Shown here: positions 3,302-23,754 of the stretch, in pieces
Layout of the letters: the number at the start of each line of letters is the position of its first letter
Numbering within the stretch: position 1 is the first letter of the stretch
Virus record (IMG/VR): IMGVR_UViG_3300035670_000108
Span: 25,048 to 89,047 of that record
Direction: 5' to 3' (one strand)
Source: a virus
DNA length: 64,000 bases
Made by a program: the position numbers and the translations under genes
The notes under the pieces: generated by a model
What the model was told of the DNA's origin: nothing
The model's database searches: none
What the model saw: the letters and a program-made list of their open reading frames with translations, nothing else

Positions 3302-3330
3302 CAGACCCTGCAAAGACTTTGCAGGGTCTG
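3302..3330. repeat. 17-bp palindrome copy extended to a 29-bp inverted repeat
   Basis: cagaccctgcaaag-a-ctttgcagggtctg. Confidence 0.95.
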
Positions 3331-3351
3331 AAGGTTAGACGAATTGGCGGA

Positions 3352-3657
3352 TCAGCGGAAGTCGTACAGTTGCTTGCGCAGTTGCGCTCGCTCCACGTCC
3401 CAGTCCTGGCCGGTGCAATAGGTCATCACCTGGCCCCTCACGTAGAGGCGCTCGATAGCCCAGCGGCCAGGCCACTCCTTCAGGGGGCGGGCGATGTTCT
3501 CGGCGATGACCTGCTTCTTGTCCTGGCGGCAGCGTTTGGTGACCATGTCCAGCAAGGATCGCTGCTGTTTGTCCGTCAACACCTGCTGCGCGTTGGGGTT
3601 TTCTCGTGCGTCTCGCATCATCATCTTCAGCGAGATCTCCTCGTGGGCTGTGCTCAC
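3352..3657 (-). CDS. hypothetical protein
   Basis: 101-aa ORF, 4-bp overlap with upstream gene; YCTGQDW motif. Confidence 0.7.
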   Translation of the reverse strand: MSTAHEEISLKMMMRDARENPNAQQVLTDKQQRSLLDMVTKRCRQDKKQVIAENIARPLKEWPGRWAIERLYVRGQVMTYCTGQDWDVERAQLRKQLYDFR

Positions 3658-3938
3658 AGTGCGTACTCCCGTTTGATGGCCAGATAGCGGGTGGTGTCGA
3701 CCTTCTGCACCACCCAGTCAGTGGCCTCGGCCTCGTTGTCGCCGCCGGCCGGGTAGACCCCAACGACGGTGGGGATCGAGAAGCTCTGCCCCTTGGCGGT
3801 GACGATGCGGTCGCCGGGCTCGACCTTCATGTCCTCGGGCGCCAGGTAGAAGTAGGAGCGGTTGCCACCGCCACTGAAGATCACGCCGACAACGACGTAG
3901 GGGGTCTTGGGTTTCGGGTCGAGCAAGGGGTGGCTCAT
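3654..3938 (-). CDS. hypothetical protein
   Basis: 94-aa ORF with ATGA overlap; V.F...SY.Y...VEPGD...WVVQKVD pattern common in phages. Confidence 0.7.
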   Translation of the reverse strand: MSHPLLDPKPKTPYVVVGVIFSGGGNRSYFYLAPEDMKVEPGDRIVTAKGQSFSIPTVVGVYPAGGDNEAEATDWVVQKVDTTRYLAIKREYAL

Positions 3939-4438
3939 GGCAGTTGTTCCTCGGGCATTTCCAGGCGGTAGAAGCCCAGCACCTGGGTGCCGTTGACCTC
4001 CTGGACGGTGAAGGTGATCTCGGGGCCGGCGACGTTGTCCAGCTGCTCCATCAGCGAGCTGACGAAGGCGTCGACCTGCGGCGGCTGCAGCTCGTGGTAG
4101 CGGTCGAACAGGCCGTTGTAGCTGGCCGGCGCCACCTGGGCGATCAGGTCGAGCAGGAACTCTGCCGTCTCCTCGTCGGTGTAGCTGGCCGGGCTGACAA
4201 GGTGGGGGCCGCCATCGGCTACCGTCTCGGCCGGCGCGCTGTGCACCTCGAAGACCACCAGGCAGTTGTCACCCTTGAGGCTCGCCAGCGGGTTGCTCTT
4301 GAGGGTGGCTATCGCCTCGTCGACGTCGCGGTTGGTCGGCGCCAGCAGTCGCCGGGCCTCTTCCTCGCTGATGCCGACGTGCTGGGGGCCGACGCGGCGG
4401 GAGAAGTGGCCGGGAATGGTGCGGCGTTGGTAACTCAT
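3935..4438 (-). CDS. hypothetical protein
   Basis: Start trimmed to MSYQRR (AAGGAG RBS, ATGA overlap). Confidence 0.7.
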   Translation of the reverse strand: MSYQRRTIPGHFSRRVGPQHVGISEEEARRLLAPTNRDVDEAIATLKSNPLASLKGDNCLVVFEVHSAPAETVADGGPHLVSPASYTDEETAEFLLDLIAQVAPASYNGLFDRYHELQPPQVDAFVSSLMEQLDNVAGPEITFTVQEVNGTQVLGFYRLEMPEEQLP

Positions 4439-4689
4439 GGGGTGGCTCCTTTGCGTGGTTGACAGTCGGTGTGGTAGGTCGGCTCGGTCTTCCACACCTT
4501 AGAACGAGCGATCAGCTCGTCGAGAATCTGGCGTCGGGTTTTGGCGTTTCCAGCGGCGTCAGTGTTGAACGGGTTGAGGGTCTGCGACTCGGTGAAAGTG
4601 CGCGAGGCCTTCTTGTTGCAGACGGGGCAGATTCCCGACTTCTTGATCGGGTACTTGACCACCTCGAAGTTCACGCGGGTTGTACGCAT
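4435..4689 (-). CDS. small Zn-binding protein
   Basis: CPVC...HTDC and QTLNPFN motifs. Confidence 0.7.
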   Translation of the reverse strand: MRTTRVNFEVVKYPIKKSGICPVCNKKASRTFTESQTLNPFNTDAAGNAKTRRQILDELIARSKVWKTEPTYHTDCQPRKGATP

Positions 4690-5117
4690 GGCTCACCCTC
4701 CATGCCGCCGGCATAGATCTTCACGTCGTCGCCTAAGTACAGGTCAATCGGTAGGAAGTCGGTGTCGTAGCCGCAGGCCTTAGTCAGGCGCAGCCCGACA
4801 TCGCCCAGGCCACGATCCCAGAACCCGCAGCCGTGACCGTTACGGGTCAGCCAGAGGTCATGACCGGCGTAATCGTAGGCCGTACCCTGGCTAGGGTCAT
4901 AGCTGATCTGGTCGGTGTACAGCTCCAGGTCATCGCGGTAGCGCTCGAAGAACTTGGTGGCCTCGGCCTTCAGGCGCTCTTCCTGGTGCTCCCCCCACTC
5001 GAAGTTGTCCGAGTCGAGGTCAACGTCTTGGCCGGTCTGCGGGTGGGTGCTGGTGCTGCTCCACAGGGCGGCCACCAGGTAGCCGCGCAGGAACTCTTCA
5101 AGGAGTGGGTTACTCAT
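4671..5117 (-). CDS. conserved hypothetical phage protein
   Basis: Y..AALWSS...AGHDLWLTRNGHGCGFWDRG block. Confidence 0.8.
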   Translation of the reverse strand: MSNPLLEEFLRGYLVAALWSSTSTHPQTGQDVDLDSDNFEWGEHQEERLKAEATKFFERYRDDLELYTDQISYDPSQGTAYDYAGHDLWLTRNGHGCGFWDRGLGDVGLRLTKACGYDTDFLPIDLYLGDDVKIYAGGMEGEPCVQPA

Positions 5118-5367
5118 GGGGGAATACCTCGTCGATAATGTGGCGGCAGCGGCGGCACTCTCGCGCGCCAGCCGCCTCGGCGGTGCGGAAGGAGCCGCCG
5201 GTGGAGTACGGCTTGCTGCCGCACATGGCCCCGCCGTCGTGGATAGCGTGGGCGACGCCGGTCTGGTCGTGCCAGCGGTTCAGCGAGGGCGCCCACCACA
5301 CGCCGGTGGCGTCGACAGCCCGGCGGATCTCGGCGAGCCGCCCCTTGCCTGGCTCACAGAGGTTCAT
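5110..5367 (-). CDS. hypothetical Cys/His protein
   Basis: 85-aa ORF; H...CG...CRRC. Confidence 0.65.
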   Translation of the reverse strand: MNLCEPGKGRLAEIRRAVDATGVWWAPSLNRWHDQTGVAHAIHDGGAMCGSKPYSTGGSFRTAEAAGARECRRCRHIIDEVFPHE

Positions 5368-5974
5368 CGCCTTCCGCCTCCTCGACGAAGGGCACGATGT
5401 CCACGGTGATGTCGAAGGTCTCGTCGATCTGGCCGTCCAGCGGGCCGCCGAACTGATCCAGCTTGAAGCGGCCGGCGTTCAGCACCAGGCACTTGCGCTT
5501 CGGCTCGATGCCGCGATCCCACAGATCGAGCATGTCCTTCACCGCGTTGTGCACCTGCTCGGACAGCTGGCCCATCGGGTCGTCACCGATGTCCGCGTCG
5601 TCCAGCAGGGCACCGGGTTCCAGCATGGCCAGGTTCAACTCTTCGTCAACCTCCAGGGCCGATCCCTCGATGGCGAAACACATGGCGCCGTTGAAGGTGC
5701 AGCCTGGGAAGGCGTTGATCTCTATGCGGATCTGGTTGAGCACCTTCGGCGCCGGCAGCTCGATGCCGTCGTCGTCCCAGGCGGCCGGATGGATGTCCCC
5801 CGGTACCACGCCGATGACCTTGATCTCGGTCTCGCGCATCGACCAGTCAGCGGCGGCCTGGGCACGGCCCTCGACGCCGGCAAGGGTGGCATCCTCCTGC
5901 TCAACCTCGACGGTGCAGATGTGGGTGGTGCCGGCGTCATTGGTTTGGCGGCAGAAAGTGGTGAACTTGAACAT
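5354..5974 (-). CDS. acidic hypothetical protein
   Basis: Start trimmed to MFKFTT after GAGGAGG. Confidence 0.7.
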   Translation of the reverse strand: MFKFTTFCRQTNDAGTTHICTVEVEQEDATLAGVEGRAQAAADWSMRETEIKVIGVVPGDIHPAAWDDDGIELPAPKVLNQIRIEINAFPGCTFNGAMCFAIEGSALEVDEELNLAMLEPGALLDDADIGDDPMGQLSEQVHNAVKDMLDLWDRGIEPKRKCLVLNAGRFKLDQFGGPLDGQIDETFDITVDIVPFVEEAEGDEPL

Positions 5975-6104
5975 GGCGACCTCCTCGGTCAAAACCAGAT
6001 ATAGCGGTAGAAGGTGTAGGTGCCGAGCAGGCCTCCCGGTTTGAAGACCTGATACCCAACGTGCACCCCTTGTCGGATGATCATTCGCAGACGGTAGCGT
6101 TGCT

Positions 6105-6362
6105 TCACAGGGAACCTCCCATTGCCTTGATCACCATCGGGGTGATGTCCTTGCGCGAGCCTTCCCAGAAGCGGAACGCCGGAGACCGGCCCACCTCGAA
6201 GTCGACGCGCATCATCAGCCGGCCGCGGCGGTTGGTCACGTAGGCCTGGCCATGCGGTTGCAGCAGATCCGGCTGGAATGTGGCGGCGTTGCGGATTGCC
6301 TCGCGCGCCGCCACCCGCACCTTGGCCAGGAAGGCCTCATTGAGGCTCGTTGGCGTGATCAT
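6105..6362 (-). CDS. hypothetical protein
   Basis: ORF overlapping the end of the upstream gene; start uncertain. Confidence 0.6.
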   Translation of the reverse strand: MITPTSLNEAFLAKVRVAAREAIRNAATFQPDLLQPHGQAYVTNRRGRLMMRVDFEVGRSPAFRFWEGSRKDITPMVIKAMGGSL

Positions 6363-6687
6363 GGGAGGTACCCTCGTAGCCAATGGCCAACAGGTTCTGG
6401 ATGGCGGCGTCGATCGCCGTGGCCTTGGCCTGCGCCTCGCCCATGATCTCGTCGCGGGCCTTCTCCATGGCCTTGACTTCCAGGCTGATCATGTCGATCT
6501 CGCCCTCGGGCAGCGGCACTTCCACTTCGTGCTCGCAGATGAAGATCTCGCCGGAGGTGTTGGCCTTCAGCTGCCGGGGGTCCCAGCTTTGCATCGAGAA
6601 GGTGTAAGGCAGTTGCCCTGGTTCGACATAACACCGGCGGCGAGCGACGACATAGAGCTTCTGTTTCAGAGCGGAGGGGAGTTTCAT
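6337..6687 (-). CDS. hypothetical protein
   Basis: 116-aa ORF; its RBS (AGGTGA) overlaps the end of the palindrome at 6696. Confidence 0.7.
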   Translation of the reverse strand: MKLPSALKQKLYVVARRRCYVEPGQLPYTFSMQSWDPRQLKANTSGEIFICEHEVEVPLPEGEIDMISLEVKAMEKARDEIMGEAQAKATAIDAAIQNLLAIGYEGTSHDHANEPQ

Positions 6688-6739
6688 GGAGTCACCTACA
6701 AAGGCTTTGCAGCCTGGCTATTGATGGCGATGGAAAAGA

Positions 6740-6763
6740 TGCGGGAGGCCTAAGCCTCCCGCA
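6740..6763 (-). terminator. rho-independent terminator after the SGNH gene
   Basis: tgcgggaggc-ctaa-gcctcccgca hairpin followed by TCTTTT on the minus strand. Confidence 0.75.
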
Positions 6764-6780
6764 AATGGTGTTGCTGTCGA

Positions 6781-8112
6781 TCAGGTTGGGATCTGGCCGG
6801 GCACCGGCCTGATCTCCAACCCGGTGATGCGGAAAGTCCCGGTGGGCGGCCCCAGCGTCGACAGATAGCACGCTGCCCTGAGCCGCAGGTCGGTCGCGTC
6901 GGCCGGCATGACGAATCGAGGGGAGCGCGCTATACCCGCATCGGCCACCTGCGGCAGCAGGCTGACGTTGGTGTACTTGTCACCGTCCCAGAGGGAAGTG
7001 GTTCCGCCCGGGGTAATCAGCTGGAAGCCGAACTGCAGCGAAGCGATGTTGTTCACGTCGGCGTCGTGCTCGTACTGGGCCACGACTTCGTAGACTAGGC
7101 CTGGCGTCACCTTGTTTTGCAGGCCGATCTGGCGCATCAGGTCGATCGCCGCCGTCTGCGTCGCGGCCACGCCGCCGACCACGATTTGCTGCCAGGTCTT
7201 GCCATCCTTGGTGACCTTGGAATAGGTTCGGGTCACGCCAGTGGTGCCGGTCGAGTTGCTGCCGCTGTAGCCGGTGGCTAGCTGGCCGGAGCCGCCGCTG
7301 CCGACGGTGCCTGTGGTGCCTGCCGTCAGCGCGTTGCTGCTGGCCGACCCCTGCGGGTTGGTAGTCGCGTTCCACGGATTCTCCACCGTTGCGATGACCG
7401 GGATGGCGGTGAACAGGTTCGCTACCACCTCAGCGGCGGTGATGCCCCAGTAATAGGCGCCAAGGGTCAGCGGGTGCAGGCCGTCGCTGGTGTACCCGTC
7501 CTTGATGTCGTTGACCGTCCCATCCTTGAGCAGGTGGGTGTGGTTGTCCACGACGTAGCAACCGACCCCCGGCAGTTCGGCGAGCATCCGGCTGCGGATG
7601 GTCTGGGCGGTTACCAAATTGGCGCCGGCCAGTCGGGTAGCTGGGTAGATGTCGTTGCCGCGTGGCGCCGGGACGATGAAAATCAGCACCATGCGCGCGG
7701 TCTTCGCCGCGTCCCGCATGCGCTTCATCGACTCCAGCGTCTGGTCGGCAGTCACCCCGGCGTTCGGGTCGTTGGTCCCCACGGCGATGATGCCAAGGCC
7801 GGCGCCGGTGGCTATCATGGCCGTCATCCTCGCCTCGGCCATAAGCGTCGTATCGCCGCCCACGCCGAAGTTCCTATTCGGCGAGAAGTACAGCCGCTGC
7901 CCAGTTCGGCGGTTCATCGAGGTGATGAAGCCGTTGTTCTGGAAGCCGCCCACCGTGGACGAGTTCTGCAGCACTATGCTGTCGCCCAGGATCGCCAGCA
8001 GGTTGTTGCGCGGAGCGCCGTCCCAGGCTGGCGCTCCGCGGGGCGGTGGAGCGTCTTGCAGGTTGCTCGATAGGCTCTGGAACACAGCCCTTGCCAGCTT
8101 GTTCGCCAGCAT
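6781..8112 (-). CDS. SGNH/GDSL esterase with a C-terminal beta-rich domain
   Basis: Blocks ILGDSI, GVGGDT, GTND and DGLHP; Gly/Thr-rich linker. Confidence 0.85.
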   Translation of the reverse strand: MLANKLARAVFQSLSSNLQDAPPPRGAPAWDGAPRNNLLAILGDSIVLQNSSTVGGFQNNGFITSMNRRTGQRLYFSPNRNFGVGGDTTLMAEARMTAMIATGAGLGIIAVGTNDPNAGVTADQTLESMKRMRDAAKTARMVLIFIVPAPRGNDIYPATRLAGANLVTAQTIRSRMLAELPGVGCYVVDNHTHLLKDGTVNDIKDGYTSDGLHPLTLGAYYWGITAAEVVANLFTAIPVIATVENPWNATTNPQGSASSNALTAGTTGTVGSGGSGQLATGYSGSNSTGTTGVTRTYSKVTKDGKTWQQIVVGGVAATQTAAIDLMRQIGLQNKVTPGLVYEVVAQYEHDADVNNIASLQFGFQLITPGGTTSLWDGDKYTNVSLLPQVADAGIARSPRFVMPADATDLRLRAACYLSTLGPPTGTFRITGLEIRPVPGQIPT

Positions 8113-8115
8113 GGC

Positions 8116-8403
8116 TCAGGTCTCCGAAAATACGCCGATGGCCGCGCCGCCGGGCCGGGCCGCTGACCGCATCACACGGTAGGTGCCAGGCCCGAAGATC
8201 TGAACCTGGCGCTGCGCGTCGTTCAGCAGCGCCACGAAGTTATCGGCGCCGGGGGTGTCAATGACCACCTTGATCTGCTGGCTGACCTGGACGTTGGCGC
8301 TGGCGGCGAAGATCCCTACTACGGCTGAGGCCCCCGCGGCGAGCACGACGTCAGTGGACGTCGCAGCCGCCGTTCCTTCGGCCAGAATGGTTGACTGAGG
8401 CAT
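8116..8403 (-). CDS. small beta-rich protein co-inserted with the SGNH gene
   Basis: 95-aa ORF with GGGAG RBS; GPGTYRV motif. Confidence 0.75.
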   Translation of the reverse strand: MPQSTILAEGTAAATSTDVVLAAGASAVVGIFAASANVQVSQQIKVVIDTPGADNFVALLNDAQRQVQIFGPGTYRVMRSAARPGGAAIGVFSET

Positions 8404-8466
8404 GGTTAGCTCCCTGCTGGATGAGGCGTGGAAAGTGGCATCAAGACTACACCTGGTCGAAGTGAC

Positions 8467-9084
8467 CTACAAAGGCTTTGCAGCCTGGAAGAAGTCGTTA
8501 ACGAACTGGCGCGGCACGATGGCGACGTAGCGATGGCCGAGGATCTGCTGGTACTTGACCTGGATCAGGGCGTGGTCGTCGCGCCAGCTGATGTCGAGGT
8601 AGTAATGGTTGGACGGGTTGACCCCTGGCTGGGCGCTGTAAATCATCGTGGCCATCACGTCGATCAGCGCCTGGCTGGGGCGGACGTGGTTGTACAGGTC
8701 GAAGCCGCAGCCTACCGGCAGGCTCACCCACAACATGCCCGGAGGTGTCTCGCCCGCCGCCTTGCCCGTAGAGCGCTCGGTGAACAGCTCAGCCAGGCTC
8801 TCGCGGATCTGAATCGGCATCTTGCGGCGCACCGGTACCCAGGCCAGGGCCACCTGGTTGTCCGGCCAATCCGGGTCGAGATCCTCGAGCATGGCGCAGT
8901 TCGAGCAGATGAACTCGGCAGCGTCAGGTGCCGCCAGGTTCGGGGCGTAGTCGCGGTACCAGCCTACTGCCTGGCCCGCCTCGACGCGCACCTTGGCGTC
9001 GCAGACCAGGCAACACAGGGCCTGGCCCAGGTACTGGCCCCGCATGATGGGGCGCAGCAGTCTAGTGGAGATGGGCTTTAGCAT
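8467..9084 (-). CDS. Zn-finger hypothetical protein
   Basis: CLVC...CSNC; its TAG stop is supplied by the palindrome variant. Confidence 0.7.
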   Translation of the reverse strand: MLKPISTRLLRPIMRGQYLGQALCCLVCDAKVRVEAGQAVGWYRDYAPNLAAPDAAEFICSNCAMLEDLDPDWPDNQVALAWVPVRRKMPIQIRESLAELFTERSTGKAAGETPPGMLWVSLPVGCGFDLYNHVRPSQALIDVMATMIYSAQPGVNPSNHYYLDISWRDDHALIQVKYQQILGHRYVAIVPRQFVNDFFQAAKPL

Positions 9085-9505
9085 CTTCGTTCACCTCGGT
9101 GTAATGGGCTTCTGGCTGCGGGTCGATGTTGATGGCCATGTGCAGGCCGGTGGGGCGCTGGTAGAACGGCTGGCCATTGCGCGGGTCGAGGACCGTCACC
9201 TGGTCTTGCGACACGTCCATGCGCACCAGCGCGGCGGTGTCCTCGGCAGTCCACACGCGGGCCTTGCCCTCGACGGTCAAGGAGAGGCTGTTGACGCCGT
9301 AGATGATCGGCGTGCACTGCACGGTGCGCCTCTCCAGGGTGGCGCCGGCCGCCAGCTGCAGCTCGTCGGCGGCAGCGCGCAGGATCGCCACGGGGTCGGT
9401 ATGGTTGCCGCTGACGTGGTCATTGAGCGCCACCCGCGCCTTGCTGCGCAGGCCGTCGGCCATCTCCAGCAGGATGTTCTGCAGCTCACGTTCTCGCTTG
9501 CTCAT
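9062..9505 (-). CDS. hypothetical protein
   Basis: 147-aa ORF tiling the operon. Confidence 0.7.
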   Translation of the reverse strand: MSKRERELQNILLEMADGLRSKARVALNDHVSGNHTDPVAILRAAADELQLAAGATLERRTVQCTPIIYGVNSLSLTVEGKARVWTAEDTAALVRMDVSQDQVTVLDPRNGQPFYQRPTGLHMAINIDPQPEAHYTEVNEDAKAHLH

Positions 9506-9517
9506 GGTCTGCCTCGG

Positions 9518-10119: not shown

Positions 10120-10149
10120 GATTCTCTCCAGCTGCAAAGACTTTGCAGA

Positions 10150-12412: not shown

Positions 12413-12484
12413 GATTTGCCTCCTATAATGGCAATGGAACCTGCAAAGTCTTTGCAGATCAAAGAGAGTAGCCTATTGGCTAGA

Positions 12485-14212: not shown

Positions 14213-14878
14213 CTAGATCGGTGATGCGTAGAGCTTGGTGCCGGGCGGTAGCGGCTGCGTCAGTTCGACGTGCAGCAGGCTGATTCCGCCGCCAGTCTTT
14301 AGCTGAACCTCACCCACCGCCTCCTGCCCCTTCACCGCGGCCAGCTCGGCGCGCAGGGCGTCGCGTTGTTTCTGCAGGTCAATGGCGTTCTGCCCGTAAG
14401 CGTCGCGCGCCGACTTCGCATCGGCCAGCTCGGCGCGCAGCTTGCCGTTGAGCTGCGCCAGTCCGGCGTTTGCCTGCTCAAGCATTAAGGCGTTGGAGCA
14501 CCACCTCTCCACCTCTGCCGCCATAGCTGCGGTGATGCGCTGTACGTCGGCTAGCTCGGCGCGCTCTTCCAGGGTGGGGCGAGCGCCGAACTTGCAAAGT
14601 TCTTTGCAGCCTCCCTGGTGGATGATCTCGCCCTGGAACTGCCACTTGGGGATGACCAGGACGTTCTTGCCTTCGTGGTAGAAGCCTTCCTGACCAACGA
14701 TGGCCTGGTACTCGTAGCCCTCACGCTCGCGCACCTGATGGCCGTCGAAGATGCCCGCCCCGAAGTTGATGATGATGGTGTCCCCGAGCAGGAAGATGTC
14801 GGCACGCTGGGCGTAGCCGTAGTCCAGCACCAGCACTCGGGCGCCGGTCTTGACGCAGTTTCCGGATTTAACAGGCAT
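14213..14878 (-). CDS. probably chimeric hypothetical protein
   Basis: Globular N-half; coiled-coil C-half ending QEAVG...LPPGTKLYA; degenerate palindrome at the junction. Confidence 0.65.
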   Translation of the reverse strand: MPVKSGNCVKTGARVLVLDYGYAQRADIFLLGDTIIINFGAGIFDGHQVREREGYEYQAIVGQEGFYHEGKNVLVIPKWQFQGEIIHQGGCKELCKFGARPTLEERAELADVQRITAAMAAEVERWCSNALMLEQANAGLAQLNGKLRAELADAKSARDAYGQNAIDLQKQRDALRAELAAVKGQEAVGEVQLKTGGGISLLHVELTQPLPPGTKLYASPI

Positions 14879-15658: not shown

Positions 15659-16069
15659 CTACAAAGACTTTGCAGCTGAGGCGTACCAGTGGGCTCCACC
15701 GTTGAACTGATTCATGGTGGCGTGAATGTGCGCGGTCATCTCCTGCACCAGGCGACTCCCGTTGGCGAAGGTGATCTGCATGTCGGAGTTGCGCTCGGTC
15801 GGCCCCCAGCGGTTCTTCTGGGGGTCGTAGCCGAAGATGCTGGTGAGCTTGATGTCGCTCATGGTGCCGCGGATCTCGTTGCCCTTATGGGTCGAGCGAT
15901 GCAGCAGCTGGAGCACCAGGCGCTCCCCCTTGGCACGGTCGTCGAAGAACAGCCATAGCTGCTCAACACGCCGGCCGGCACGGATCTCCGGCCGGTAGAT
16001 ATGGCCGATATGGCACTGGCTGAGGTCTAGCGTGCGACTGCCGCCGTCGATGATCAGTAGCTGGGCCAT
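15659..16069 (-). CDS. hypothetical protein
   Basis: Start trimmed to MAQLLII (GAGGAG RBS); stop lies inside the palindrome. Confidence 0.7.
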   Translation of the reverse strand: MAQLLIIDGGSRTLDLSQCHIGHIYRPEIRAGRRVEQLWLFFDDRAKGERLVLQLLHRSTHKGNEIRGTMSDIKLTSIFGYDPQKNRWGPTERNSDMQITFANGSRLVQEMTAHIHATMNQFNGGAHWYASAAKSL

Positions 16070-16247: not shown

Positions 16248-16248
16248 G

Positions 16249-16854: not shown

Positions 16855-16900
16855 GATTTGCCTCCTGTGAGGGCAGTGGGATGCTGCAAAGACTTTGCAG

Positions 16901-17497
16901 CTATTGGACGAGGTCGAGCAGGGTGTAAGTGATCGGCGCCTCAGCGCCTGGCATGATCACCGTGAACCCTGCCTTTGTGCGCTCGGCTCCGCTCATGCTG
17001 AGCAGATCCACCACGTCTTTGTGATACACGAGCTTCTTCTTGACGTCCTCGGCCGTGGCGTTGCCTGGCATCAGCCAGGTGACGCTCAGGTTGATGCGCA
17101 CCATCTGGCTACGCAGGCCTTCTACCTTGGCCTCGTGCTTGCGCAGCGTCGTCATGATCAACATGCCCAGTTGCTGGGTCTGGCCCAGCGCCCCAGCTGG
17201 CAGATTCTGCAGCGCCTCCTCATACTCGAGTGCGAGCTGATCCTGCACGGTGATCCAGGTCATGCCGAGGTTGTCGAACAGCGTCGAACCGCAGCCAGCG
17301 TCGTCACCGATAGAGCGCTCCAACGTCACCACCAGGAAGCGGCCGAGCAGCTCCAGGTGGAAGTGGCCGGCGATGCTGCCGCCTTCGTAGAGGGCCTGCA
17401 AAGACTTTGCAAGCTCCGCTTCGTTATTGACGTCCTCGGGCAGCAGAACAGCCAGGCGGACGGTGTAGCTCTGGTTGAAGGTTGGGGTCAGCATCAC
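16901..17497 (-). CDS. hypothetical protein
   Basis: 198-aa ORF containing an internal palindrome copy (LAKSLQA). Confidence 0.7.
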   Translation of the reverse strand: MMLTPTFNQSYTVRLAVLLPEDVNNEAELAKSLQALYEGGSIAGHFHLELLGRFLVVTLERSIGDDAGCGSTLFDNLGMTWITVQDQLALEYEEALQNLPAGALGQTQQLGMLIMTTLRKHEAKVEGLRSQMVRINLSVTWLMPGNATAEDVKKKLVYHKDVVDLLSMSGAERTKAGFTVIMPGAEAPITYTLLDLVQ

Positions 17498-17940
17498 TGC
17501 GGCTCTCCTATGACGTGAATGTCGGCCATCACCTTGTGGTTGATGGCCCAGTGGAATTGATCGGCGATGTACTCCTTGATCCCATTGCGGTCGCGGCCAG
17601 TCACCCGGAGCACAGGCCCCAGGAAAGTCGGGGTGACGATCACCTTGTGCTCAGTCCAGCCGGAATAGCCGCCGTGTTCGTCCATGTGGTGGAAGGCTGT
17701 GTCGAACACCAGCATGTGCGGGCAGGCATTGAGGTCGCCGGCCCTCTCGCACATGTCGAAGTTGAGGGTGGTGCCGCGGTCGAAGCCGCTGCCGCTGGGC
17801 AGGTGCTCCTTCACCAGGCGGTCGATCTCGTCTTCCACCGCATCCAGCATGGCTTTCTGCAGGGTGTCGCGGCGGGCCAGGTTCTTGCGGCGCTCCAGCA
17901 GCGTGGCCAGGGCGATGTATAGCGGGATTAGAGAACGCAT
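17494..17940 (-). CDS. conserved hypothetical phage protein
   Basis: LPSGSGFD...FHHMDEHGGY.GWTEH...VTP block. Confidence 0.8.
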   Translation of the reverse strand: MRSLIPLYIALATLLERRKNLARRDTLQKAMLDAVEDEIDRLVKEHLPSGSGFDRGTTLNFDMCERAGDLNACPHMLVFDTAFHHMDEHGGYSGWTEHKVIVTPTFLGPVLRVTGRDRNGIKEYIADQFHWAINHKVMADIHVIGEPQ

Positions 17941-17967
17941 GTTGCCTCCTATCTAGGCAATTGAAAG

Positions 17968-18273
17968 CTACAAAGTCTTTGCAGCCTTGGCGGTTAGAGC
18001 TAGCAGGGCCAGTCGATCTTGCCCTGCCGGTGTGTTGAGGTAGCAGCGGGGCAGGTGCATGACGCCGTCCCACTGGCGGGGCAGCAGATCCGGCCCCACC
18101 GAGGCCACACCCATCGCCCAGAGCAGCAGGTCGGCGCGCTTGTCACGGCGCAGCTGCTCGTCGAGCTTGGTCAGCACCGCGCAGCGCACCGCGGCGTCAT
18201 TGGTCAGCAGCTGCTCGGTCGTGTAGCAGAGCACCTGGCTGCCGTCGACAAGGGTGACCAGGAACTTATTCAT
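17968..18273 (-). CDS. hypothetical protein
   Basis: Start trimmed to MNKFLV; stop lies inside the palindrome. Confidence 0.6.
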   Translation of the reverse strand: MNKFLVTLVDGSQVLCYTTEQLLTNDAAVRCAVLTKLDEQLRRDKRADLLLWAMGVASVGPDLLPRQWDGVMHLPRCYLNTPAGQDRLALLALTAKAAKTL

Positions 18274-18751
18274 CGCCGGCAACCATGAAGACGGCCGGGT
18301 AGCCGTCCACCGCATCGGCGCCCTCCTGCAGGATGTCGCAGTCGATGGCGTCAGGGAACGGGCCTGGGGCGGTGCCGATCTTCGAGTACATCCAGCGCCC
18401 CTCCAGGTCATAGACCACGGTGTCCACCTCGGGGAAGAACGTGCGGACGTGCTCCATCGCCTTGGTCACCGCCTCGGGAGCCTCCGGAACCAGCTGGATA
18501 GACGGCGCCCCCTGTTGGCTTGGCACCAGCTCCACGGCTAGCCAGCGTTCGACCAGATTGCGGCCCCGCATGGTCAGAATGTGCTGGCCGTCGACCAGGG
18601 CCAGGAAGCCTTTGTCGCGCCAGAAGAAGTGGCACTCGGCCGAGGCCGGCGAGCTGGGGTTTACCTCGTTCCACTGATCGGCCGAGTAGTAGTAGTGCAA
18701 CAGCACGCGCAGCTGCGCCGGGGATACCTGGCGGTTGGGATTGTTAGGCAT
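18266..18751 (-). CDS. hypothetical protein
   Basis: 161-aa ORF behind a palindrome and RBS hairpin. Confidence 0.75.
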   Translation of the reverse strand: MPNNPNRQVSPAQLRVLLHYYYSADQWNEVNPSSPASAECHFFWRDKGFLALVDGQHILTMRGRNLVERWLAVELVPSQQGAPSIQLVPEAPEAVTKAMEHVRTFFPEVDTVVYDLEGRWMYSKIGTAPGPFPDAIDCDILQEGADAVDGYPAVFMVAGDE

Positions 18752-18797
18752 GATTTGCCCTCCTATTCAGGCAATGAAAGCTGCAAAGTCTTTGTAG

Positions 18798-19070
18798 CTA
18801 GCGACCGCAACAACTGCAATTTCGCGCGTCGTGGCCGTACATCTCGGTGTGCTTCGCGCTCAGCTGGCCATCCGAAAGGATCTCGGCGTCGGTATAGCTG
18901 CTGGCGTAGCACCAGGTGATCTCTACCTCTTTGCGCACATGGATGGTCGAGGTGAAGATGACGTGCTTGTTCAGCTCTCCGTCGTTGCCCGTCGGGCGGT
19001 CCTCGATGACCACGGTGTGCCAGTGGCGCAGCTGGCGCCCGCCCAGGTGGTTGTAGACGCGGCGGCTCAT
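18798..19070 (-). CDS. hypothetical protein
   Basis: MSRRVYN..., ATGA overlap; ends in C.CCG immediately before the palindrome. Confidence 0.7.
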   Translation of the reverse strand: MSRRVYNHLGGRQLRHWHTVVIEDRPTGNDGELNKHVIFTSTIHVRKEVEITWCYASSYTDAEILSDGQLSAKHTEMYGHDARNCSCCGR

Positions 19071-19402
19071 GGCGTGACTCCGCGGTTCCACTGGTACCAG
19101 TCGACGGTCATGCTGTCCGGATTCTCCAGCTCCAGCATCACCTCCACCTTGAACGCCATGCTGACCTTCACCTCTTCGGTGCCGTCCTCGTCCCAGGTCA
19201 CGGCCATTGCCGAGGCGTAACCATTGACCAGCTCCACCTCCTGATCAGCGAAGTGGTAGTCGGTGTCGTCGACGGACAAACGGGCCAGCATGACCTGCTG
19301 ATCCGGCATGTAGTTGTCGCAGAAGCCAATGGTGTCGATCACCAGGTCATCTACCACGATGGTGTCAGCCCGGTTAATCAGGTCGAAAAGTTTAGCCAGC
19401 AT
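19067..19402 (-). CDS. acidic hypothetical protein ending in VDWYQWNR
   Basis: 111-aa ORF behind a palindrome and RBS hairpin. Confidence 0.75.
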   Translation of the reverse strand: MLAKLFDLINRADTIVVDDLVIDTIGFCDNYMPDQQVMLARLSVDDTDYHFADQEVELVNGYASAMAVTWDEDGTEEVKVSMAFKVEVMLELENPDSMTVDWYQWNRGVTP

Positions 19403-19748
19403 GATTTGCCCTCCTATTCAGGCAATCGAAAGCTGCAAAGTCTTTGCAGCTGGGGTGTAATCGGGGGAATGACTGTCGTGCGAACTTCTGCACTTCCTCG
19501 GGCAGGTCGTCCCACTTCACTCGACGGCCCAGGTGCCTGCCCGGCGTCGCCGAGACGTGCATGCCGAATCCCTGCGGGTGGAAGGGGCGCTCGCTGGCGC
19601 CGATAGCCGACCAGGTGCCGTCGCGCTCGCGCTCCTCCTTGGCCCAGCGCGGCGGGATGATGGTGTAGCGGTCGAAGGTGCGACCGCCGTTGTCGTAGCA
19701 GCGCAGCGTCGTGCCGTAGCGCTGCAGGATGCCCATGCCCATGCTCAT
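19392..19748 (-). CDS. conserved hypothetical phage protein
   Basis: YDNGG.T.DRYT...PFHPQGFG.H......HLG.R....DLP..V block; ORF reads through the palindrome. Confidence 0.8.
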   Translation of the reverse strand: MSMGMGILQRYGTTLRCYDNGGRTFDRYTIIPPRWAKEERERDGTWSAIGASERPFHPQGFGMHVSATPGRHLGRRVKWDDLPEEVQKFARQSFPRLHPSCKDFAAFDCLNRRANHAG

Positions 19749-20038
19749 GGCTGGCTCCCCGCCTCCTGCCGGTTCCACTGGTACCAGTCGACGCTCATGC
19801 TGGTCTCCTTCACGTCGTGCAGGCTGGCCTTCATGCTCCCGTTGCGCTCGAAGGCCGGGAGCATGAAGGTGTACCCGCTGGAGTACCCGCTGCGCCGCTC
19901 CAGTTCGGCCATGTAGGGGGCCTGCAAACGCAGGTACAGGTCGAGCAGGCCGACCCGTTCCAGGGTGTCGTGGCTGAGGCTGCAGCGGAGCACCGCCGTC
20001 AAGGCGAAGTGCTCCTCCTTGGTGAGTTCAATTTGCAT
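19745..20038 (-). CDS. hypothetical protein ending in VDWYQWNR
   Basis: Start trimmed to MQIELT (GAGGAGG RBS in hairpin). Confidence 0.7.
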   Translation of the reverse strand: MQIELTKEEHFALTAVLRCSLSHDTLERVGLLDLYLRLQAPYMAELERRSGYSSGYTFMLPAFERNGSMKASLHDVKETSMSVDWYQWNRQEAGSQP

Positions 20039-20097
20039 AGCTGTTGCCTCCTCTATTGGGCAATCGAAAGCTGCAAAGACTTTGCAGCTATTGAATT

Positions 20098-20532
20098 TCA
20101 CAGGGTGAAAACCGGCTCCGGCCGAGCAAGGGTGGCCGTGCCCTCGACGTCGTCAGCCGCCGGCCTCACCCACATCTGGGTCTGGTCGTCCCAGATGAAG
20201 CCGGGGATCTCCATGCCGTCGGTCAACGGCTGATCCATGGGGTCGTCGTAGATGGGCGATTCCGCGTCCCCGCCTTTCCACTCGGGCGGCAGCAGAGGCT
20301 CCACGCCCTCCTCCGCCGGGCCGGGGCAGACCGGATAGCCCAGGGCGTCGAGGCGTGGCGTGATCGAGGAGCCGGCGACCAGGTACTCGCAGCCGGTGCC
20401 CTTGTCGACGAACAGGTTGACGGCCGTCGAGGCGGAGGGATGCCGGTCGAAGCCGGCACCTACCTGCGCCACGAAAATGGCGCCAAGACCGATCATCAGG
20501 ATCAAATCGCTCAGCTTGAGGGACGTCGTCAT
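20098..20532 (-). CDS. membrane-anchored DUF6440-like protein
   Basis: N-terminal TM; VD..TGC.YL....ITPRLDA.G.P motif. Confidence 0.65.
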   Translation of the reverse strand: MTTSLKLSDLILMIGLGAIFVAQVGAGFDRHPSASTAVNLFVDKGTGCEYLVAGSSITPRLDALGYPVCPGPAEEGVEPLLPPEWKGGDAESPIYDDPMDQPLTDGMEIPGFIWDDQTQMWVRPAADDVEGTATLARPEPVFTL

Positions 20533-20549
20533 TCTTCTGTGCTCCTAGT

Positions 20550-21520
20550 GCTGCGTGGGTGAGAGAAAATTTTGTCCTGGCTTGCACCGACAAGGGTGGC
20601 GAACCACCCGTCCAAGCTATTGATTTCAAAGGCGGTGTAAAAATTTGGTGTAAAAAGAGGTCACCAGAATGCCAACCGATATAGCTATAGCTCGGTGGGA
20701 ATTATGCTGATCTCTTCGCCGGTGCAACCTGGCTCCAGATTCTCATTTGAGAACTGGCCCCATTAACCTGCCCATTTTCTAGCCCCGATACACTCCTTGG
20801 CACTTCACCAGTCGAAACCACCCCATTCACCTGACTTGCACCTACCTGGCCGTATACCTACAAACACACCAGAAAGCGGGAAATTTTACACAGCCCGTTG
20901 ATCCATTAAGGTTTGAACCTGCAAAGTCTTTGCACCTTCCGCCCTGCAAAAACTAGGCGTTCACTGGGCCTTTTTTACTGCATAAATCAAACAGTGGTTT
21001 TTTCCCGACGAACGGCCCGTTCTCCGTAAATCTTCAGTGAAGATACATAACTGTGGAGAGTTTTGAGTCTAATCACCAGTTACTACCTCCGCTTGCAAAA
21101 AATGGAAGCGCAGTTGCACCGCCTTTTCGGAATGGCCTATACCGCTTGCACCTCGACCGTGAGCGATTTTGTCCGTGCAAGCCCGTGGAACATTTTGAGG
21201 GCCGTCGAACGGGTGTTTTAGCGCCGAAACGGGCGCAATGGTCGATGACTATCTGGGGGAATAGTGTGAATTTTGCTGCGAGGGAGGTGCAGAAAATTAC
21301 ACCAGTCGAGAGGACGGGGTGGGTGGTCGAGCAGATCGTTAGCTTGCTCTGTAGTTCCGCCAAAACACCCCCCTATAAAATAAAATAAAACATGAAATTT
21401 TTCTCTCTATATAAGGAAAAACGGGGCTTGCGGCTAGCCACAGAAGAAAAGGGCCGTATAGGAAAGATTGGCCAACAGTGGGTTATGGAACATTCAAAAA
21501 TCGAGGGTAAAACTCGACGG
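20550..21520. other. about 1-kb AT-richer non-coding region, candidate replication origin or control region
   Basis: No convincing ORF; IHF-consensus match at 20613-20625; GTGTAA repeats in both orientations; A/T tract at 21375-21421. Confidence 0.45.
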
Positions 21521-21562
21521 CCGTCTTACAGTGAGTTCGCCAGCCGTCGAGACCATTGCTCC

Positions 21563-21644
21563 CGCCACCCTTGTGCCCAGCACAGGGCGGTCGGAACAGG
21601 GCGCCGGGGATCCAGGCTCACGCCACCCTTGTGCCCTGCACAGG
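21563..21644. repeat. 24-bp direct repeat
   Basis: cgccacccttgtgccc(a/t)gcacagg at 21563-21586 and 21621-21644. Confidence 0.85.
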
Positions 21645-21995
21645 CCGGGCTCGATCCGAACGGACGACGTCGCCCAATGCCGAGGCCCAGTTCAACATGG
21701 CTTGGCGCCGGCCTTGTGCGAGGACGTCGTCGCGCTCCAGACCAGGGAGGTACTGCCCGGCCTTGCTCATGGCGACCGCACGGGCCATGACGATGGGCAT
21801 TACGCCGCATCCGGCGGGCAGGATGACGAGGCGGGGCGTACCCTGTACGGGGGTAGCGGCACAGAGGCGCAGGGCGTCTTCCAGGGCCTTCCTGACGGCA
21901 TAGCGGGGCTGCCCCTCGCTGAGTGCGGCCCCTTTTACGACGTGGTTGCGGTCGAGCAGCACGACGGCAAGGCGCAGGTGCAGGGTGTTTTGCAT
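21618..21995 (-). CDS. hypothetical protein
   Basis: Start trimmed to MQNTLH (AGGAGG in hairpin after the palindrome). Confidence 0.65.
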   Translation of the reverse strand: MQNTLHLRLAVVLLDRNHVVKGAALSEGQPRYAVRKALEDALRLCAATPVQGTPRLVILPAGCGVMPIVMARAVAMSKAGQYLPGLERDDVLAQGRRQAMLNWASALGDVVRSDRARPVQGTRVA

Positions 21996-22043
21996 GGTGT
22001 TGCCTCCTATTGCGGGCAGTGCAAGCTGCAAAGACTTTGCAGG

Positions 22044-22367
22044 TCAGGCGCTGAATTTGGTGATTTTGTGGACTTGGCTGACGGTGTACATGGGCAGGAG
22101 CTGGGTGCGGTCGGTATCGAACCGCACCTGGTCAATCGCCAGGAACCCGTGGCGCTGGTCAGTAGGCTGGACGGTGAACTCGACGTCGAAGCGCTGGCCA
22201 CGGCGCAGGCCCCACAGGGTGCGGGCGTCGTGCTCAGTCAGCAGCACTTCCACGGTGCGAGGGCGAACGGTGCCGCTGCGCACGTTGAGGGAGACCATGA
22301 AATATTCGCGCTGGGCAGCTGGCAGCGGGGTGGCTGCCAGGTCGATACGGTCGGCTTGCAGTTGCAT
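22044..22367 (-). CDS. hypothetical protein
   Basis: MQLQAD..., AGGAG RBS; bounded on both sides by palindromes. Confidence 0.7.
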   Translation of the reverse strand: MQLQADRIDLAATPLPAAQREYFMVSLNVRSGTVRPRTVEVLLTEHDARTLWGLRRGQRFDVEFTVQPTDQRHGFLAIDQVRFDTDRTQLLPMYTVSQVHKITKFSA

Positions 22368-22407
22368 GGCGTGGCTCCTGTGGACCTGCAAAGACTTTGC
22401 AGGTCGG

Positions 22408-22659
22408 TTAGCGGACGGTGCGGACGTAGACGGGCACGGCCCAGCGCGTGGCGCCGATCTGCTGGAAGACGGTCTGGGTCTGGAGCCACGGGCGGGCGCA
22501 GAGCTGGGGGCGCTGGCGGCGGGCGGAATCCGGGCGATCGATCACGCGGGGAATGTAGGGGGCGGATTCGACTTGGTGCTCTGCTGCCAGATGGTTGCAA
22601 CGGTCGGCGCCATGACCACGGCGGCCAATGTGGGCGAACAGGCGATTGAGTGCGTGCAT
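22408..22659 (-). CDS. hypothetical protein
   Basis: AAGGAG RBS; bounded on both sides by palindromes. Confidence 0.65.
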   Translation of the reverse strand: MHALNRLFAHIGRRGHGADRCNHLAAEHQVESAPYIPRVIDRPDSARRQRPQLCARPWLQTQTVFQQIGATRWAVPVYVRTVR

Positions 22660-22681
22660 GGTGAATCTCCTTTGCTGGATT

Positions 22682-22733
22682 GGGCTGCAAAGACTTTGCA
22701 GCTAGGGGGGCTGCAAAGACTTTGCAGCTAGGG
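22682..22733. repeat. tandem duplication of a 26-bp unit containing the palindrome
   Basis: gggctgcaaagactttgcagctaggg twice (22682-22707, 22708-22733). Confidence 0.9.
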
Positions 22734-22775
22734 GAAGCGCTTTGCCGTGCGGCCTGAAAAACAAGCGCGCACGGC

Positions 22776-22800
22776 AAAGCGCCCCACTAGGGGGCGCTTT
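22776..22800. terminator. GC-rich hairpin, possibly a bidirectional terminator
   Basis: aaagcgcccc-actag-ggggcgcttt just after the stop of 22814..23566. Confidence 0.6.
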
Positions 22801-22813
22801 TCTGGCGTGGGGT

Positions 22814-23566
22814 TTAGGCCGTTGCTTTTGCCAGTTCGGCCGCTTTCGCTTGCGATTCGCCCCGGCTTTTCGCATTGGGCTTGCCGGCGGCCGTGTTGCC
22901 GCGGCCTCTTTTCTCTGCCTTTTCCAGTGCAGCAGCAGTGCGCCGGTCAATTTCGGCCGCGATACGCTTATTTAATTCGTGCAGGTCTGCCGAACTGAAG
23001 GCTGCGAGTTGTTCCATAATGGCGCCGATAGAATCCACGCGCGGCGCGTTTTTATCCGATACCGATACGGCAGGGCCTTTGCCAGTGGCGGCCGGTTTAG
23101 AGGCGGCCGGTTTAGCAGGGAAAAGGCGCGCATTGACTGCATTAAGCGCCTTTTGATCGTGGCCTAGCGCGGCCTTTACTTCGCCTTTCGTCGGCTTTTC
23201 CAGAATGATGACGTTTGCTTTACAGGCGCCACGATCAAGCGCGATATAGCAGACGGCCGGCCGGGACTCTTCTGCAATGGCGCCCCAAATTTGGCGAACA
23301 TGCGTGGCGATACTGTTAGCAATGCGTGCCCAGCTCTCGGCGTCAATTTGTTCTTTTTTGGTCAATTGTTCGGCCAACTGGACAAAAACGCTTTCCAGCG
23401 TAGTCCCGATGACCGGCACGGGCGAAGCGAAGAGGGCGCGCACCTGGTCGGCTAGTTTGCCGCGTGCTTTATCGGCTTGCGTGGCGGCCTGCACAATGGC
23501 GGCGGCACTGCCGTTTACTTTTTGAACAGCGGCGGCAACGGCTTTATTTTGGCTGGTGGTTTGCAT
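22814..23566 (-). CDS. Ala/Lys-rich first gene of the leftward operon
   Basis: 250-aa ORF with GGAG RBS; visibly more AT-rich codons than neighbours. Confidence 0.75.
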   Translation of the reverse strand: MQTTSQNKAVAAAVQKVNGSAAAIVQAATQADKARGKLADQVRALFASPVPVIGTTLESVFVQLAEQLTKKEQIDAESWARIANSIATHVRQIWGAIAEESRPAVCYIALDRGACKANVIILEKPTKGEVKAALGHDQKALNAVNARLFPAKPAASKPAATGKGPAVSVSDKNAPRVDSIGAIMEQLAAFSSADLHELNKRIAAEIDRRTAAALEKAEKRGRGNTAAGKPNAKSRGESQAKAAELAKATA

Positions 23567-23754
23567 GGTATGGACTCCGGTATTAGATAAGGCGAAGAGC
23601 GCGAGCGATGAAATAGGCGGCCGGTATGCAAAGCGCGACGATTACTAGTTCCATGCTGCGGCCCTTCTGTTAGGTTTGCCGGTCTGCAAAGTGTTTGCAG
23701 CTTCCGGTCTGGCTTGTGACCGGCTCATAAATGCACCCGGCACGCCCTACACAT

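Follow-up and report, generated by a model that had tools for sequence, protein, structure and literature searches.

Among the described systems closest to the repeated palindrome considered here, the conserved inverted repeats of phage phiC31 are said, from work attributed to Ingham et al. in 1994 and Wilson et al. in 1995, to be operators for repressor c; phiC31 is a temperate phage with an integrase and a 683-aa repressor. Integron attC sites are imperfect palindromes, 55-141 bp long, in which core sites are paired and some bases are extrahelical, with the tyrosine recombinase IntI, attI and a cassette promoter adjacent to them. In the Cluster O mycobacteriophages (the Corndog group), the sections of the published account that deal with repeats describe tens of copies per genome of a 17-bp 7+3+7 repeat, TGTTCGG-NNN-CCGAACA, which are dispersed, about one third intragenic and unlinked to translation starts, with 'few, if any' in indels; the authors predict a dimeric DNA-binding protein, and the phages carry no integrase and are not obviously temperate (PMC4351075). 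The stoperators of Cluster A, as portrayed in the same sections, are asymmetric 13-14-bp sites oriented with transcription (PMC4351075). ESAS, or extended start-associated sequences, are paired imperfect 17-bp inverted repeats, 4-13 bp apart and poorly conserved in EF phages, and the start-associated sequences (SAS) are 13-bp elements at the ribosome-binding site, according to the relevant parts of three reports (PMC3203893, PMC7302621, PMC12699233). Finally, the promoter-early stem-loops (PeSLs) of T4-type phages are presented, in the pertinent portions of two papers, as a sigma-70 consensus promoter joined to a G/C-rich terminator stem, with promoter/terminator activity and mini-circles shown by experiment (PMC2839356, PMC4122927). 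Here we analyze an array of this general kind in a 64,000-nt window that comprises bases 25048-89047 of the 89,047-bp IMG/VR virus record IMGVR_UViG_3300035670_000108, a genome with direct terminal repeats (hereafter G000). Nineteen copies of a 17-bp palindrome (the dyad) punctuate its leftward early arm. An earlier annotation made from the sequence (the original prediction) had noticed them, naming PeSLs, SAS and stoperators as analogues and missing the closest ones in anatomy, which are the phiC31 repeats, the Cluster O repeats and ESAS. Our best reading, to which we assign a tentative probability of roughly 0.4, is that the dyads are operators for a dimeric phage protein and that their copies double as homology patches for the exchange of gene cassettes.

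The dyad, CTGCAAAG-N-CTTTGCAG (pattern CTGCAAAGNCTTTGCAG), is a perfect 8+1+8 palindrome with a free central base and an A/T-rich core, in a genome of about 63% GC. Its pattern is matched exactly 10 times in the window and not once in 100 dinucleotide-preserving shuffles. Allowing up to three mismatches yields 19 matches against 0.25 expected; 18 of them have at most one mismatch and all of these fall within 3308-23700, and the nineteenth, with three mismatches at 55806, does not exceed chance. This last site is the sole match in the 40 kb to the right, where the original prediction had rightly found no copy. The copy that it had listed at 14592 as degenerate does belong to the count, and proves to be an exact 16-bp palindrome, TGCAAAG-TT-CTTTGCA, at 14593-14608 with a 2-nt spacer; with it the total comes to 18 + 1 = 19, the number first claimed. 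A motif scan of the whole genome, which had been proposed as a check, returned the same 18 17-bp copies and none in the remaining 25 kb of the record, so that the family is confined to 3308-23700 of the window. A reversed control pattern had no match in the whole record, and an unbiased palindrome-family scan of the genome recovered this 17-bp family alone. The central base occurs in both orientations, as had been stated (on the plus strand, A in 10 copies, T in 6 and G in 2). Complementary flanks are indeed seen at 3302, 22383, 19431 and 20069, and an AG/CT extension is common, yet complementarity is not general, since the flanks of several copies do not pair.

Every gene from the left end of the genome to about window position 23650 lies on the minus strand, and every gene from 24028 onward on the plus strand, according to a frame analysis of GC content at third codon positions (GC3); Pfam matches in the leftward arm fall on the same strand. 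The strand frame assumed by the original prediction is thereby corrected. Because the arm is read from the minus strand, a dyad stands upstream of the gene at the lower coordinate. In transcription order, the copies are as follows (ORF, open reading frame).

23684..23700: dyad copy 1, one mismatch (CTGCAAAGTGTTTGCAG on the plus strand); leader copy, some 55 nt past the sigma-54-type -12 element, 29 nt from the ATG of a 23-aa ORF
22711..22727: exact; the upstream one of two tandem copies whose centres are 26 bp apart, past the hairpins behind the 250-aa gene
22685..22701: exact; second of the tandem pair, 25 nt to ATG 22659
22386..22402: exact; 5 nt past the upstream stop, 18 nt to ATG 22367 of a 107-aa gene
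22026..22042: exact; 1 nt past a stop, 30 nt to ATG 21995
20919..20935: one mismatch; mid-way along a low-GC, non-coding stretch of 1.07 kb, with no start codon in its vicinity
20071..20087: exact; 10 nt past a stop, 32 nt to ATG 20038
19433..19449: exact; inside the final codons of ORF 19392..19748, 30 nt to ATG 19402
18781..18797: one mismatch; adjoins a TAG stop, 29 nt to ATG 18751
17968..17984: one mismatch; its last three minus-strand bases, TAG, are the upstream gene's stop; 27 nt to ATG 17940
17396..17412: one mismatch; intragenic, within gene 16901..17497
16884..16900: exact; adjoins a TAG stop, 29 nt to ATG 16854; a divergent allele of the upstream gene ends here
15659..15675: one mismatch; its TAG is the upstream stop, 27 nt to ATG 15631; the following gene is absent from the relative G001
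14593..14608: exact 16-bp palindrome with 2-nt spacer, intragenic; spacer type as in the relative G006, kept in G001 at 3978
12441..12457: exact; 27 nt past a stop, 28 nt to ATG 12412
10132..10148: exact; 12 nt to ATG 10119
8467..8483: one mismatch, central G on the plus strand; its TAG ends the upstream gene; left-hand copy of an exact 24-nt repeat
6696..6712: one mismatch, central G on the plus strand; 27 nt past the intrinsic terminator 6740-6763, 8 nt to ATG 6687; right member of the 24-nt repeat
3308..3324: last dyad, exact, lengthened by 6 complementary bases at either side; 25 nt to ATG 3282

The placement of the copies is strict. There are 42 gene junctions within 3282-23700, and a dyad is present at 14 of the 18 that leave a gap of at least 25 nt (the tandem pair occupying one of them) as opposed to 1 of the 24 tight or overlapping ones, where the copy at 19433 is embedded in the 3' end of the upstream ORF. 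That most copies stand between a stop codon and the next ribosome-binding site agrees with the open junctions; the copies at 17396 and 14593 are intragenic, and those at 23684 and 20919 lie in the 5' leader and in the non-coding stretch. The dyads mark off blocks of one to nine translationally coupled genes, and the dyad-to-ATG spacing is 25-32 nt in 11 of the 17 junction or leader copies of G000. On the transcribed strand the complete module reads stop codon, dyad, about 6 nt, a Shine-Dalgarno (SD) hairpin TTGCC-N9/10-GGCAA that encloses AGGAGG, 4-7 nt, and ATG. The upstream stop codon often abuts the dyad or is made by its variant CTTTGTAG. Six such SD-enclosing hairpins, each 24-25.5 bp downstream of a 17-bp dyad (centre to centre), form the second half of modules.

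12416-12434, minus strand: TTGCC-N9/10-GGCAA dyad around AGGAGG
15633-15651, minus strand: the same element
17942-17960, minus strand: the same element
18755-18774, minus strand: the same element
19406-19425, minus strand: the same element
20044-20063, minus strand: the same element

In the palindrome scan of the genome this TTGCC-N9/10-GGCAA family amounts to 10 sites across 12416-27048, six in early modules and four at the start of the rightward arm. The latter (23984, 26104, 26886 and 27029) cover no ribosome-binding site.

Comparison with two relatives indicates that the dyad is under constraint. The nearer one, G001, is a 63-kb IMG/VR contig about 95% identical to G000, which ends at window position 18883 and keeps all 8 orthologous 17-bp copies in addition to the 2-nt-spacer copy. 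Gene 16901..17497 is 59% identical between the two genomes, as against 97% and 91% for its neighbours, and the dyad that it contains at 17396, written in A/T-ending codons within a gene of GC3 0.83, is identical at 17 of 17 positions, including a private T at position 1 (chance of about 0.59^17 = 1e-4). The divergent allele of this gene ends exactly at the dyad at 16884, where the central base alone differs in G001; the same change is seen in wastewater run X13. The second relative, G006, is a 24-kb fragment of a more distant phage whose early arm carries 9 copies of TGCAAAG-NN-CTTTGCA, all with the 2-nt spacer. The first of them lies directly downstream of a conserved sigma-54-type promoter, the dyad-to-ATG spacing ranges over 10-34 nt, the SD may abut the dyad, and the copy at 17225 is the tip of a long hairpin with a T run behind it. 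G000 and G006 together have 28 copies, and there is not a single compensatory double change among them. Of the 15 variant copies, 11 share one half-site substitution, TGCAAAG to TACAAAG, which affects a single half of the dyad and may be in either one. This pattern fits the sequence reading of two equivalent half-sites and not the mere upkeep of a stem. Three copies lie in translated sequence (19433, 17396 and 14593) and in three others the end of the dyad forms the stop codon (8467, 15659 and 17968), which is tolerable for a duplex site and less so for an RNA hairpin. The comparison shows the 17-bp dyad to be a genuine element, peculiar to this phage lineage and held under constraint in its nucleotide sequence.

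Searches beyond the lineage bear on its privacy. In 185,579 prokaryote species genomes the extended 21-bp palindrome turns up only as three chance singletons, and this near-absence argues for a phage-encoded reader and against a host operator. A megablast of the early arm against 50,697 phage records gave no match. An IMG/VR motif scan returned 19 stretches, of which G001 was the only one with several copies, and a scan for the 2-nt-spacer form gave singletons among the matches listed. Protein-guided locus searches (with 437-aa, 107-aa and 250-aa-family queries, and with P0035, a homologue of the 250-aa protein, in genome contigs) recovered G001 only or nothing; P0035 had no match among cultured phages, and a search with the conserved promoter word recovered G006 alone. 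A 65-nt module search produced three matches, at chance level only, and a dyad-plus-hairpin pattern in metagenome contigs produced eight unrelated singletons without BLAST match to this phage. Two further fragments, G007 and G008, show no dyad and are uninformative, since neither contig reaches the early arm. The genome of Pseudomonas phage Lana, which is laid out in the same way and has a terminase 32% identical, contains no palindrome family. The restriction of the dyads to one lineage and their absence from Lana would suit a selfish or neutral palindrome, akin to repetitive extragenic palindromes (REP) or miniature inverted-repeat transposable elements (MITE), that is kept uniform by gene conversion and is functionless for the phage, as would the existence of sub-families that share flanks (6696/8467 and 16884/20071/22685/22711). 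We consider this highly improbable. The placement with respect to stops and ribosome-binding sites is strict, G006 keeps the half-sites despite an altered spacer, no transposase is found, and the private T at 17396, preserved in G000 and G001 despite 41% gene divergence, points to selection and not to conversion from other copies.

The constraint might also act on the transcript. A pre-SD hairpin could punctuate processing or stability, providing a protected 3' end for the upstream block and a cut in the U-rich linker; it could be an attenuator; or it could be a factor-loading site at which an antitermination or translational factor would read the hairpin sequence-specifically. All 10 modules that were folded are predicted to adopt a two-hairpin structure, in which the dyad makes a 7-13-bp hairpin beside the SD hairpin, and the fixed position between stop and ribosome-binding site, the conservation of the arms across lineages with spacers of 1 or 2 nt, the private stem extensions at 3308 and at G006 17225 (the latter before a T run) and the location of the first copy ahead of internal terminators, within the leader at the 5' end of the sigma-54 transcript, are all in keeping with such a role. 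Seven of the 11 recurrent variants, moreover, are in the orientation that keeps a G-U pair in the transcript. The other four, however, break it into an A-C mismatch, the 7:4 split is not different from chance, and three of the seven are explained by their service as TAG stop codons. The fold z-scores against shuffles are unremarkable for 8 of the 10 modules (-0.02 to -3.0), with 3308 (-5.1) and the tandem pair (-6.2) as outliers; the stem is A/U-rich, compensatory change is wanting in the 28 copies and translation runs through several of them. A terminator scan of the minus strand found no U tract at the dyad stem-loops, and a scan of the 64-kb window with Rfam 15 at the gathering threshold gave no family match. 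An RNA-level element is thus possible, if doubtful. Perfect symmetry, a free centre, half-site variation, constraint inside a coding region, A/T-rich arms, the want of compensation and the absence of a host-genome counterpart to the 21-bp form favour, on the sequence evidence, a duplex DNA site that would be read by a dimer. The multi-operator or RNA-element regulon advanced by the original prediction is accordingly plausible and remains the best reading, given nucleotide-level constraint and a near-fixed place ahead of the ribosome-binding site.

The original prediction had also envisaged a cassette-shuffling system, which is weakly supported. Between G000 and G001 we counted 21 mosaic boundaries in 670-18883, four of them at a module (16900, 15628, 10132 and 3279). 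Under a uniform null this exceeds the 0.7 expected (P=0.004). Where a boundary involves a module, the module is the upstream edge, and at the downstream edge there is simply the start of a gene. Behind the dyad at 10132, G001 and a contig of run X9 have 275 other nt in place of 624 nt, the swap beginning exactly at the dyad edge, and the replacing gene brings its own SD hairpin; G001 also holds an extra 298 nt, an extra gene, directly behind the module at 3308. An exact 24-nt repeat containing the dyad brackets a 95-aa gene, the gene of a 443-aa SGNH/GDSL hydrolase and an intrinsic terminator (6694-8488). Wastewater contigs from four runs of four studies were aligned to the arm, and 5 of the 26 joints shown are dyad-to-dyad, two of which have the 107-aa gene following dyads other than its own. 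Exact matches of 31 or more bases do not occur between any two modules, which makes it unlikely that the joints are simple k=31 repeat collapses of this genome; the identical dyad piece can be aligned to any copy, which makes these joints suggestive only.

Such junctions could be the work of a dedicated recombination site, integron-like or hairpin-directed, with regulation secondary or absent. Replacements or insertions that start exactly at a dyad or module, the 24-nt duplication around the SGNH cassette, the dyad-to-dyad joints and the RdgC homologue that adjoins the arm would all suit it. Yet 17 of the 21 boundaries fall elsewhere, dyad junctions show no enrichment over other gene junctions, the downstream ends of variable segments have no dyad, and the joints may partly reflect arbitrary placing of the identical dyad piece. 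The SGNH locus itself, with three structures (G000, G001 and X5/X9), shows no break at the 24-nt repeats: in G001 the segment 8653-6500 has been lost at a microhomology of 12 nt inside genes, with fusion of two unrelated genes as the result, and the wastewater contigs skip 6364-8815. (The proteins A, 8467..9084, and B, 6337..6687, were considered as paralogues and this was ruled out.) No integrase, resolvase, HUH, transposase or other site-specific recombinase domain was found by Pfam in 80 ORFs, and the constrained intragenic copies would be left unexplained. We regard such a site as decidedly unlikely, and dedicated cassette shuffling as weakly supported. A bolder proposal, which we deem improbable, is that the dyads are recombinase-independent, hairpin- or homology-guided exchange sites through which wastewater and subsurface phages trade early, possibly anti-defence genes, with a dyad reader that both silences the arm and promotes exchange; the 250-aa protein, the HU-like protein, or RdgC together with the SbcCD-type nuclease of the phage could be such dual-role readers. 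Were it true, this would be a phage counterpart of the integron, without the integrase.

In the operator reading that we prefer, the early arm would be transcribed by host RNA polymerase from a sigma-54/IHF-type promoter, each dyad would be a double-stranded DNA operator bound by a dimeric phage-encoded protein, and that protein would control the whole arm at many points, for instance by shut-off or by roadblock throttling once it has accumulated. Early accessory genes are, in part demonstrably, sometimes gained, lost or replaced directly behind a dyad, as for T4-type PeSLs, and the recurrence of 17-24 identical bases at many junctions implies that the copies may serve as homology patches at which such exchange takes place. 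The most economical function would be for a phage protein to control the early arm at many points, exchange being a by-product. Several observations weigh against this. The half-site spacing varies, being 1 nt here, 2 nt in G006 and both in G000 and G001, and a hairpin accommodates such variation more easily than a rigid dimer. The long private complementary flanks at 3308 and at G006 17225 resemble the tips of terminator hairpins, and every RNA prediction folds the dyad beside the SD hairpin. When the boundaries are compared with gene junctions, module junctions account for 4 of the 13 junction boundaries and for 9 of the 38 junctions overall (P=0.37), so that the coincidence of breakpoints with the motif that had been suggested as a check shows no excess over other gene junctions. 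Lastly, no helix-turn-helix, repressor, ParB/KorB, sigma or RNA polymerase domain was detected by Pfam in the 80 ORFs, and an HU-family protein and RdgC are, by domain, the only DNA-binding candidates. The original statement that no recombinase or repressor is identifiable hence stands for the Pfam scans, with these two genes as a footnote. Together with the product of the first sizeable early gene they are weak candidates for the reader.

Genome 24762-25055 (ends at window base 8), minus strand: HU-family DNA-binding protein (PF00216 in Pfam, E 2e-25), with HU proteins of bacteria as its best matches in PDB
24333-25544, plus strand: RdgC homologue, encoded by the rightward arm's second gene and extended at its N-terminus by about 100 aa
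22814..23566, minus strand: first sizeable early gene, 250 aa, conserved family, candidate reader

The HU-family gene lies just past the last dyad, and a 166-aa ORF at genome 21946-22446 falls just under the threshold for the same Pfam family. HU-family proteins are usually not sequence-specific. The 250-aa family numbers 37 homologues of 34-100% identity, some of them on contigs of 45-89 kb, with invariant WxxIANS and YI.L motifs and a Lys/Ala-rich tail; Pfam scans of each member and a PDB profile search gave no match to it, ParB/KorB included. An ESM-Atlas lead (score 0.79) that would have made the 250-aa protein a phiC31 repressor c was rejected, with an hhalign probability of 0.1%. The same search with the 107-aa protein gave nothing usable.

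The leftward arm begins in a 330-bp divergent region, which bears on a further alternative, that of a repeated promoter.

23755-23770, minus strand: predicted sigma-54-type -24/-12 element, TGGCAC-N5-CTGC (TGGCACGCCTTCTGCT)
23783-23802, minus strand: IHF-type site, about 15 nt upstream of the sigma-54-type element

The region also carries a rightward, sigma-70-like TTGCCA-17-TACACT pair, and all three elements are kept in G006, whose terminase is just 71% identical. Each dyad might likewise be, or overlap, the core promoter of its cassette, used by host RNA polymerase with a phage-specified factor and with transcription starting at the foot of the SD hairpin. Some copies do come after terminators and so at places that would call for a restart (after 6740-6763, the intrinsic terminator upstream of the dyad at 6696, and behind the 250-aa gene); in 11 of the 17 junction or leader copies the distance from the ATG is 25-32 nt; the rightward arm has the same TTGCC..GGCAA hairpin just past its sigma-70-like promoter; and the dyad arms resemble a -24/-12 layout (CTGCAA-N5-TTGCAG). 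A sigma-70 promoter was nonetheless rejected by a promoter scan of 6000-25000, in which the three sigma-70-type sites (3.3 in shuffles) were all on the plus strand and none stood at a dyad, and inspection of the dyads likewise found no hexamer pair. A sigma-54 promoter at each dyad was rejected as well: the invariant GG is missing, the 2-nt-spacer form alters the geometry, and 23770 is the sole good -24/-12 site on the minus strand of the genome. The dyads of G006 abut the SD at down to 10-18 nt from the ATG, which leaves no room for a start site and leader, and a directional promoter is not expected to be a perfect palindrome. Nor was a phage RNA polymerase or sigma factor found, either by Pfam or by a search for the D-x-DGD motif, the 981-aa ORF being the primase. 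A promoter role for the dyads is therefore unlikely.

An early arm that relied on host sigma-54 would in itself be unusual for a lytic-looking phage. The IHF-type 20-mer (23783-23802) has exact matches in at least 120 unrelated IMG/VR contigs, where chance predicts fewer than one; their GC content spans 0.28-0.64, their flanks are unrelated, and the matches often lie between iteron-like arrays, beside 3' fragments of tRNA genes or ahead of sigma-70-like promoters. With so many unrelated matches the 20-mer was useless as a probe for relatives. Between the first dyad and the 250-aa gene, a hydrophobic ORF of 23 codons (23583-23654, minus strand) may encode a leader peptide.

The array as a whole occupies the promoter-proximal 20 kb of a 48-kb leftward early arm, whose far part encodes a family A DNA polymerase, a ligase, helicases, an SbcCD-type nuclease pair, a thymidylate synthase and the primase; terminase, portal-region and tail genes are in the rightward arm. 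Three of the 41 ORFs of the dyad stretch reach a curated Pfam threshold (DUF6440, DUF7300 and the SGNH/GDSL hydrolase), and so low a yield is typical of early accessory genes. The 1.07-kb low-GC non-coding stretch (20545-21617) has a direct repeat of TTTTTACACC and one dyad mid-way, is kept in wastewater contigs, and has neither an Rfam nor a tRNA match; tRNA and tmRNA genes number zero in the 64-kb window. A small minus-strand ORF at 1867-2400 matches EF-Tu over 44 residues of the GTP-binding region at the N-terminus (PF00009, E 2e-8), the rest of the factor being absent.

As a system, the array offers several points of interest. Constraint at the nucleotide level is evident inside a coding region, the natural variation between 1- and 2-nt spacers could point to the cognate protein by co-variation, and the leader combines dyad and SD hairpin in an arm driven by a sigma-54/IHF-type promoter. 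If a binder were found, it would give a handle on the timing or throttling of a block of accessory genes and help to explain the mosaicism of that block.

Compared with the described systems, the dyads come near to each in some respects. With the PeSLs, on the evidence of the cited portions of those papers, they share an intergenic unit with the order stop codon, stem-loop motif, SD and start codon, a concentration among small, variable ORFan early genes, and insertions, deletions and replacements in close relatives that sometimes begin at the unit. Unlike PeSLs, however, they have no sigma-70 hexamer pair, their stem is a perfect A/T-rich 17-bp palindrome, and the enrichment of breakpoints over gene junctions is not significant. 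The likeness to phiC31 lies in many near-identical palindromes of about 17 bp, nearly all in short gaps just past stops: our de novo scan of record AJ006589 detects 15 sites with TACTCAC/GTGAGTA, and 14 lie in the gaps that separate annotated genes. The phiC31 integrase and repressor have no counterpart among the 80 ORFs (Pfam, including Phage_Repressor_c), the phiC31 repeats occur in late as well as early operons whereas the dyads are confined to the promoter-proximal early arm, and the repeat sequences are unrelated.

The Cluster O repeats, as the relevant sections of their description present them, are the nearest non-temperate precedent, having the same 17-bp length, inverted arms and a variable centre; here the layout is 8+1+8, the copies are held within 20 kb, 2 of 19 are intragenic, they are linked to starts and some stand at mosaic boundaries. 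The ESAS/SAS pairs of Cluster K mycobacteriophages and Cluster EF Microbacterium phages, in the published passages on them, resemble the module in being a two-part leader in the non-structural half of the genome, with an over-conserved element at the ribosome-binding site that has small flanking complementarity (SAS GGGATAGGAGCCC; here TTGCC..ATAGGAGGCAA) and an inverted repeat immediately upstream. They differ in that the inverted repeat here is a single perfect 8+1+8 palindrome, no sequence similarity is seen, their hosts are Actinomycetota and the Cluster K phages are temperate. Stoperators, in the sections cited, contrast with a dyad that is fully symmetric and whose central base occurs in both orientations. 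The integron attC sites are more distant: the dyad is a perfect 17-bp palindrome whose flanks are not a conserved second core pair, a Phage_integrase-type match is found in 0 of 80 ORFs, and the arm starts at a sigma-54-type promoter. Arrays of private palindromes between small early genes are thus already known from phiC31, Cluster O, the ESAS/SAS phages and the PeSLs of T4-type phages, and the present one establishes no new category; what it adds to them is a clean example from an uncultured, 89-kb siphophage lineage that probably infects Gram-negative hosts.

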